DNA of 4,497 nucleotides from a virus (Duplodnaviria > Heunggongvirae > Uroviricota > Caudoviricetes), in the IMG/VR virus record IMGVR_UViG_2648501230_000017; one strand, given 5' to 3'. The position numbers and the translations under genes were made by a program. Position 1 is the stretch's first letter. Each line of letters opens with the position of its first letter. A model generated the notes under the pieces. That model worked only from the letters and a program-made list of their open reading frames with translations. It ran no database searches and was not told the origin of the DNA. Of the stretch, positions 3,257 through 3,720 are shown in pieces.

Positions 3257-3393
3257 TATTCATTCTTCCAGATTTCTTCCGGCAGAGCCTTATACTGGAA
3301 TATACCTGGCTCAGTATATTGTTGAAAATATTATATGTTTGTCAAAAATAAAAGTTCTGTTAAGTATTGATTGAGTGTTTGTTATACGGTCTA

Positions 3394-3720
3394 ATGGTTT
3401 TTTCAGTATTAAATATTTATCATTCATATGGTGTGGGTAGAGTGAATATTGATGAGGCGTCGGGGTGTTTCATCCTTAGGCAGCGTATTGATATAGTCAA
3501 TGCAGCACGAGCAAAGGCCTTCAGCCGTTTGACAGTTTTGTTCTGTACTCCTGATCGTCTTTTGGGAAGAGACGTTATTATTCTGAATAGTGATGCTATA
3601 CAGAGGGTTTGCGATGAGTTCATGGTTGCTAATTCAGAATTATTTGCTCTTGTTCAGGAGTACAACAGAATAGCCAGGACCTGTGGTATGGATGAACTTC
3701 GGATTACTCATCTGGGGTAG
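3394..3720 (+). CDS. hypothetical cargo protein at the position occupied by stxAB in Stx phages; rare-codon-rich; start uncertain
   Basis: ORF open from 3367 (TTG) to TAG 3718-3720; first in-frame ATG at 3394, alternative GTG at 3433 and 3442. Of 11 Arg codons, 3 AGA, 3 AGG, 1 CGA, 1 CGG and 3 CGT; of 10 Ile codons, 3 ATA. No recognisable motif and no clear Shine-Dalgarno. The first ~60 nt are very AT-rich, so the real start may be internal. Confidence 0.5.
   Translation: MVFSVLNIYHSYGVGRVNIDEASGCFILRQRIDIVNAARAKAFSRLTVLFCTPDRLLGRDVIILNSDAIQRVCDEFMVANSELFALVQEYNRIARTCGMDELRITHLG

Follow-up and report, generated by a model that had tools for sequence, protein, structure and literature searches.

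A 92-residue accessory gene in the stx-equivalent slot of lambdoid prophages, with rare codons that probably reflect base composition

Does an open reading frame (ORF) that directly follows a cluster of phage tRNA genes owe its rare codons to these tRNAs, and what kind of gene is it? The question is raised by a stretch of 4,497 nucleotides of a tailed phage (IMG/VR record IMGVR_UViG_2648501230_000017), hereafter the window, in which an ORF ending at position 3720 lies downstream of three tRNA-like sequences. A preliminary description had read the codon usage of this ORF as matched to the three tRNAs, and its product as a possible toxin or other effector. Our analysis points to a genuine 92-aa accessory gene of lambdoid prophages, with rare codons explained by base composition and a predicted helical-hairpin product that would act as a partner-binding modulator, and we consider this combined reading probable. 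The ORF is an ordinary accessory gene, from a phage protein family that has been catalogued before but never characterised.

The locus is part of a lambdoid prophage, as a prophage segment of Escherichia coli CAU16175, also found in other strains, is 100% identical to positions 3260–3900 of the window. The features recognised are collected in Table 1; in the full prophage, a nanS-type esterase gene and the lysis genes come after the IraM homologue. The ORF is located in the late-operon leader, downstream of the Q antiterminator, methyltransferase and tRNA genes and ahead of the lysis genes, which is the slot of stx. In Stx2a phages (933W type), stxA and stxB come directly after the same tRNA cluster (ileZ-argN-argO) and, like the ORF, 5' of nanS-p and the lysis genes; the idea that the ORF occupies a toxin slot was correct as far as position is concerned. 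The ORF starts 186 nt after argO, and stxA about 90 nt after argO in the Stx2a phage. The DNA of the ORF is AT-rich and rich in rare codons, as is that of the stx operon. The two differ in that the ORF product has no sequence or fold similarity to Stx and no signal-like N-terminus, and in that argN is decayed in the window. The ileZ, argN and argO tRNAs are said to serve the translation of stx; our search of the literature on these tRNAs, on rare codons in Stx phages, on the protein accession and on the PHROG identifiers yielded nothing usable.

Several minor observations concern the surroundings of the ORF. The DUF968 gene at the beginning of the window (L001, 2108–3152) is annotated as frameshifted in CAU16175, which means that the prophage may be partly defective. 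A weak isrK-like Rfam match at 1363–1436 (21.6 bits for a gathering score of 50) is probably not significant; it lies directly 3' of the Q-like gene, at the expected place of the late promoter and Q-utilisation site. The same DNA methyltransferase survives in the Stx2a phage as a remnant of 114 nt directly 5' of the tRNAs (L007, 2849–2962), which implies that the methyltransferase-tRNA arrangement of the window is ancestral to that of Stx phages.

Table 1. Features of the window, and AraC-family regulator genes at related loci. PGAP annotations of the tRNAs are those of a genome in which the matched stretch is 100% identical.
Feature	Position	Strand	Evidence or remark
DUF968 protein, C-terminal part	71–412		
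RusA	413–778		
Q-like antiterminator, DUF1133	775–1329		
Small ORF, phrog_331	1560–1757		
DNA methyltransferase	1908–2957		
Promoter-like element, TTGCAG - 17 nt - TATTAT	2968–2996	+	Ends about 10 nt 5' of first tRNA
tRNA with CAU anticodon, ileZ-type	3007–3082	+	ARAGORN; Rfam; PGAP tRNA-Ile
argN-like tRNA-Arg(UCG) pseudogene, decayed	3090–3166	+	No ARAGORN call; below Rfam gathering score; no PGAP annotation
tRNA-Arg(UCU), argO-type	3180–3256	+	ARAGORN; Rfam; PGAP tRNA-Arg
AT-rich leader; contains the 5' extension of the open frame, which is not conserved (TTG 3367, ATG 3394)	3257–3441	+	
Gene of 92-aa protein, GTG start, PHROG 2873 member, predicted alpha-helical hairpin	3442–3720	+	
DUF3927/TciB-like small hydrophobic protein, 43 aa	3756–3887	+	Pfam PF13064, E = 1.7e-27; phrog_1470; PGAP-annotated
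STnc100-family sRNA	3953–4142	+	Rfam RF02076, 132.4 bits, gathering score 47
IraM homologue	3' of STnc100 sRNA	−	
YdeO/GadX-like (Psr/PatE-like) regulators immediately 5' of the ORF at related loci	L003 3254–3979; L011 4142–4870; L013 2933–3658		

As regards codon usage, the counts of the preliminary description (8 of 11 Arg codons rare, 3 of 10 Ile codons ATA) were exact on recount of the frame 3394–3720, in which Arg is encoded by 3 CGT, 1 CGA, 1 CGG, 3 AGA and 3 AGG, and Ile by 6 ATT, 1 ATC and 3 ATA. Our host baseline consisted of 32 core genes of CAU16175 (10,153 codons), with 3.8% AGA or AGG (AGR), 16.9% CGA or CGG and 5.2% ATA. The ORF lies far above this baseline, with P = 1e-6 for at least 6 AGR of 11 and P = 0.013 for at least 3 ATA of 10. 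In contrast, the base composition of the ORF itself leads one to expect shares of 0.45 for AGR, 0.73 for all rare Arg codons and 0.33 for ATA, and the observed shares are 0.55, 0.73 and 0.30 (P = 0.37, 0.66 and 0.69, respectively). Reading this DNA in its five remaining frames gave similar rare-codon shares. Because the shares equal the expectation from base composition, the matching of codons to the tRNAs is unsupported: the ORF lacks a host-like codon bias, and shows no tRNA-directed bias beyond composition.

Comparison with other phage genes leads in the same direction for ATA and is less clear-cut for AGR. Fourteen neighbouring prophage genes contain 31 AGR among 144 Arg codons (21.5%) and 30 ATA among 135 Ile codons (22%); the excess of the ORF over the host does not extend to these neighbours for ATA (p = 0.70), and its AGR share is nominally higher than theirs (Fisher p = 0.023), a test that rests, like the comparison with relatives below, on only about 10 ORF codons per amino acid. 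The relatives of the ORF fall into three subfamilies, A (the window), B (L003) and C (L004, L011), with 57–62% protein identity, to which more distant homologues can be added. In subfamily A, AGR accounts for 5 of 10 Arg codons and ATA for 3 of 9 Ile codons, whereas the corresponding counts are 6 of 28 and 9 of 37 in lineages that lack argO (B, C, Citrobacter, IncF plasmid and Salmonella phage ST64B); AGR is thus at 50% versus 21% (p = 0.12), and ATA does not differ (p = 0.68). The four invariant Arg columns of the alignment use CGT, CGA, CGT and CGT/CGA/CGC. Four of the five AGR codons of subfamily A are located at columns which are Leu, Gln/Lys, Asn/Lys or Gly/Ser in B and C, so the AGR codons of this subfamily appear to be lineage-specific replacements to Arg rather than synonymous shifts at conserved Arg residues. 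Also, AGR and ATA codons occur in relatives devoid of tRNAs (subfamily C, IncF plasmids, ST64B). Since AGR is higher in subfamily A than in argO-less relatives and prophage neighbours, a modest relaxation of selection against AGR may have taken place where argO is present.

The parallel with stx does not hold at the level of codons either, as 15 of the 20 Ile codons of stx2A are ATA, versus 3 of 10 in the ORF. Two features of the Stx type are to be considered here, namely three intact tRNAs, and cognate rare codons above both composition and phage background. The window has two intact tRNAs, and its rare codons follow composition, with AGR only nominally above the neighbours. We propose that the AGA/AGG, CGA/CGG and ATA codons would reflect low-GC, codon-unadapted DNA, together with the replacements to Arg at variable columns, rather than a selective fit to the neighbouring tRNAs. 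The intact CAU and UCU tRNAs would incidentally ease the translation of the ORF and of other prophage genes rich in rare codons, because they can decode ATA and AGR. These data also call for caution, since a richness in rare codons beside phage tRNAs should be taken as a sign of co-adaptation only after it has been compared with base composition.

The state of the tRNA cluster itself bears on this question. Of the three tRNAs described earlier, those with CAU and UCU anticodons are real, and the UCG-like copy is a pseudogene. The first, which scores 72.5 bits with the Rfam tRNA model and is called by ARAGORN, is invariant across the loci compared; it is presumably modified to lysidine and would read ATA. 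The second (70.1 bits, also called by ARAGORN) reads AGA, as well as AGG through wobble. The tRNA-like sequence at 3090–3166 reaches only 22.2 bits, for an Rfam gathering score of 29, and ARAGORN calls no tRNA there in the window. Of its positions, about 77 in number, 13 are different in intact argN; some of the changes affect the anticodon stem, and its T-loop reads CCCGG where intact argN has TTCGA. In this window it is a decayed pseudogene.

In a set of 80 prophage contigs from IMG/VR that contain the ORF (L022–L101), in which tRNAs were sought by ARAGORN up to 700 nt upstream, 72 showed the CAU and UCU tRNAs only, the argN-type copy being undetectable by ARAGORN, and all three tRNAs were found in only 2. 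As the argN-type copy has decayed next to intact ileZ and argO, this phage lineage can apparently dispense with argN. In E. coli UCPROB-001 the cluster has collapsed by recombination between ileZ and argO (L008, 3013–3090), leaving a chimera made of the ileZ body and the 3' acceptor end of argO, which ARAGORN rejects and PGAP calls as a 67-nt tRNA-Met; at this subfamily A locus the 92-aa ORF is intact 3' of the non-functional chimera. In phage mEp460, ileZ and argO were found by ARAGORN even though they are unannotated.

Of 5426 complete genomes of E. coli, 1314 gave a match to the ORF, ST131-type strains among them, and the great majority of these copies belong to subfamily A. A query joining the tRNAs and the ORF was covered over at least 80% in 1147 genomes, and the ORF alone was found at 95% identity or more in about 1185. 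The 1147 genomes with tRNAs and ORF together indicate that the A-type ORF and the tRNAs travel as one module, and their contiguity in E. coli mostly reflects the spread of that module rather than independent associations. Among the viral contigs, the ORF was contiguous with the tRNAs in 74 of 80. The picture is different in other relatives. Subfamily C loci have no tRNAs, in subfamily B loci ileZ and argN lie 2.2 kb away on the 5' side and argO is missing, the Citrobacter locus has a tRNA-Thr as its sole tRNA, and no tRNA gene is annotated near the IncF plasmid copies. Given that subfamily C, plasmid, Citrobacter and ST64B relatives lack these tRNAs, linkage to them is not required, and the ORF family does not appear to need them.

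It is thus unlikely that the codon usage of the ORF was shaped by, or depends on, the ileZ, argN and argO tRNAs, and that efficient translation needs the cluster. This reading draws on counts far above the host core genes, on the AGR excess over neighbours and argO-less relatives, and on the frequent contiguity of ORF and tRNAs with no terminator-like site between them. It is opposed by the agreement with base composition, by ATA shares equal to those of neighbours and relatives, by the loss of the UCG tRNA, by the CGT and CGA codons of conserved Arg residues and by the persistence of relatives without these tRNAs, and the AGR excess comes from a sample of about 10 codons per amino acid.

The IncF plasmid homologues (L019, 4486–4761; L020, 4486–4761) deserve a separate mention. 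They are 91 aa long with about 35% identity, and are carried by conjugative plasmids of E. coli from animals, in very AT-rich, IS-flanked DNA near fimbrial gene clusters. Each of them is paired with a convergent 80-aa hypothetical gene without Pfam match.

The extent of the gene had been given as 3367 or 3394 to 3720, for a product of 108 to 117 aa. The conserved unit is shorter, as it covers 3442–3720 and encodes 92 aa from a GTG start, which is the likely start according to the comparison of homologues. A frame of 279 nt common to A, B and C begins with the conserved GTG AAT ATT GAT, ends with the same stop and contains zero indels. Upstream of this GTG, in-frame stops are found 6 and 11 codons away in subfamilies B and C, and among B copies this 5' stretch may carry a frameshift or, in other copies, be fused. 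Within subfamily A (28 haplotypes), segregating sites per 100 nt amount to 3.2 in the core, 9.3 in the upstream extension and 11.8 in the leader (GC 0.32–0.37 over 3257–3441), and the changes in the extension are 1 synonymous versus 6 nonsynonymous. The predicted pairing with the anti-Shine-Dalgarno sequence is also strongest at 3442 (−4.5 kcal/mol, compared with −2.4 at 3394 and −0.4 at 3367), and PGAP annotates a homologous CDS of 92 aa in strain ETEC4075 (WP_001017777.1).

A true product of 108 aa (ATG 3394) or 117 aa (TTG 3367), or an ORF that is a fragment of a disrupted gene, is in our opinion rather improbable. It is true that no stop interrupts the frame from 3367 onwards in subfamily A, that gene callers in public collections mostly give 108–118 aa, that the PHROG 2873 profile has 108 positions and that a similar upstream stretch is fused in frame in some subfamily B variants. 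These points are outweighed, for the longer forms, by the stops 5' of the GTG and the disrupted extension in the other subfamilies, by the ratio of nonsynonymous to synonymous changes, by a polymorphism three times that of the core and by the poor Shine-Dalgarno pairing at both upstream starts. A larger disrupted gene had been named as a finding that would overturn the earlier reading. Since all relatives share the C-terminus and are 91–106 aa long, the ORF is not a fragment.

The claim that the ORF is a real, horizontally mobile gene stood up well, and the comparative data argue that 3442–3720 is a mobile protein-coding gene under purifying selection. The dN/dS ratio was 0.27 in all three pairwise comparisons of A, B and C, at dS of 0.93–1.15, and third-position differences were about twice those at positions 1 and 2. 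The ORF was intact in all 80 of the IMG/VR copies. It matched phrog_2873 with E = 1.1e-68 (229 bits), residues 10–117 of the 117-aa frame covering positions 1–108 of 108 in the profile. When 1.8 billion representative proteins were searched with a profile, 22 matches were obtained, all of which were short and uncharacterised except one, a repetitive protein of 696 aa that is probably coiled-coil noise. Distant relatives of 91–106 aa with 22–40% identity and the same ends were found in Citrobacter, Salmonella phage ST64B and IncF plasmids, and intermediate relatives match both PHROG 2873 and PHROG 4827, the latter including Sb55 of ST64B. Like the ORF, the members of PHROG 2873 and 4827 are about 91–106 aa long and are located in or beside the late or lysis region of temperate enterobacterial phages; the profile of PHROG 2873 differs in that its first 16 positions correspond to the upstream extension of the ORF, which is apparently non-coding. 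Membership is uninformative as to mechanism, because PHROG 2873 has no member of known function. A chance ORF in the non-coding leader of a late operon, for which one could invoke the absence of PGAP annotation under the ORF in the subfamily A entries listed, the small codon-position signal (GC2 0.38, GC3 0.37) and the lack of a Pfam or NCBIfam match, is highly improbable and largely refuted by the comparative data, namely the dN/dS ratio, third-position excess and absence of indels across three lineages at dS of about 1, the 80 intact copies, a core less polymorphic than its flanks, and length-conserved relatives, of which PGAP annotates the subfamily C and plasmid copies.

This uneven annotation has practical consequences. 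In PGAP/RefSeq nothing is annotated under the ORF in any of the subfamily A entries inspected, so that an ORF carried by about one in four complete E. coli genomes goes mostly unannotated. The ORF is of modest interest in itself, as a gene that annotation misses in many genomes at the position equivalent to that of stx. Adding it with the 92-aa start would mend this recurrent gap, in a cargo slot of greater medical relevance than any other in lambdoid prophages.

With respect to transcription, the preliminary description had placed a promoter upstream of the tRNAs, from which the ORF would possibly be co-transcribed. The element is conserved in six loci, and in L006 and phage mEp460 (L002) homology begins exactly at its −35 hexamer, after a terminator-like hairpin. 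In these two loci the GC-rich hairpin and its T-run (CCCGCCGCCGAGCGGGTTTTTT) are found immediately 5' of the element, and probably constitute the late terminator of a different Q module. The −35 hexamer has only 3 of 6 consensus matches, which is why a consensus scan did not list the element. A scan for terminator-like sites between argO and the ORF found none, and the first convincing site is located at 4112–4133, at the end of the STnc100 sRNA (9 pairs, 7 of them G-C, with a T-rich tail); this hairpin is the probable 3' end of a small cargo unit. A further site inside the ORF, at 3556–3574, with only 3 G-C pairs, was dismissed as chance. With a conserved promoter-like element and no terminator-like site separating argO from the ORF, it is plausible on sequence grounds that the tRNAs are co-transcribed with the ORF and the DUF3927 gene. 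The ORF would be transcribed together with the tRNAs from a Q-dependent late transcript, from the promoter-like element, or from both. The STnc100 sRNA is flanked by the DUF3927 gene and by the IraM homologue of the minus strand, at a place where PGAP places a partial 'hypothetical protein' pseudogene on the minus strand.

The preliminary description had recognised no motif in the product, and our searches agree, as Pfam, NCBIfam, PADLOC and PDB sequence searches gave no significant match; in PADLOC-DB, there was no match at E ≤ 1 for any of the three subfamilies. An AlphaFold2 model built on an alignment of five sequences comprised two long helices, at residues 3–35 and 50–81 (mean pLDDT 82), joined by a conserved F(C/S)TPDR loop. 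The product is thus predicted to be a small soluble cytoplasmic protein (predicted pI 5.7) folded as an antiparallel alpha-helical hairpin; no informative sequence or fold match was obtained for the 92-aa form, whose N-terminus (MNIDEASG) has no hydrophobic signal-like segment. With neither toxin-family homology or fold nor an export signal, nothing supports the suggestion that the product is a toxin.

Gene neighbourhood provides concrete candidates for the function of the ORF, in the form of recurring neighbours such as Psr-like regulators and TerB/TciB. In subfamilies B and C, the ORF is located directly 3' of a gene for an AraC-family regulator of 241–242 aa, whose best NCBIfam matches are YdeO and GadX. 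The B and C copies of this regulator share 64% identity, and have thus diverged about as far as the ORF has. Prophage regulators of this kind include PsrA, PsrB and PatE, which in EHEC govern type III secretion and the GAD acid-resistance island (PMC10877973). A pairing with such a regulator conserved across the whole superfamily was considered and ruled out: Sb54 of ST64B is a KilA-N protein and not an AraC one, hence the pairing is limited to subfamilies B and C. As to the small ANR/Aar-like proteins that act as anti-activators of AraC-family regulators, the observation bearing on such a role is this adjacency to a YdeO/GadX-like regulator gene in B and C. In subfamily C and Citrobacter, the ORF is followed by TerB(TciA)-like and then DUF3927(TciB)-like genes, and in the window directly by the DUF3927 gene.

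The product would bind a partner protein as a modulator, rather than act as an enzyme or secreted toxin; we infer this function with low confidence from a generic fold and from gene neighbourhood. The leading candidate partner would be the Psr/YdeO-like AraC regulator, because its pairing with the ORF has co-diverged in two subfamilies. More specific proposals are doubtful: it seems distinctly unlikely that the hairpin represents a new kind of modulator, such as an anti-activator or co-factor of Psr/YdeO-like AraC regulators, or else the first gene product of a three-gene unit with TerB(TciA) and TciB affecting phage exclusion or stress tolerance. Like IraM and anti-activators, the ORF product is small, soluble and plausibly partner-binding. 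Also, the ORF shares with the other cargo of lambdoid late leaders (TciA/TerB, TciB/DUF3927, IraM-like, Psr/PatE, TolA-like, nanS-p) the same variable region and the same mosaic exchange, but it has no homology to any of these genes.

Two observations illustrate the rearrangements at related loci. In L013–L017 an IS3-family element is inserted between the regulator gene and the ORF, giving a fused product of 119 aa. The TerB-like genes of a Citrobacter braakii prophage (L010, 4489–5060) and of an E. coli prophage (L011, 5464–6035) are 95% identical, whereas the ORFs upstream of them share 40% identity, which points to a recombination junction between the two genes.
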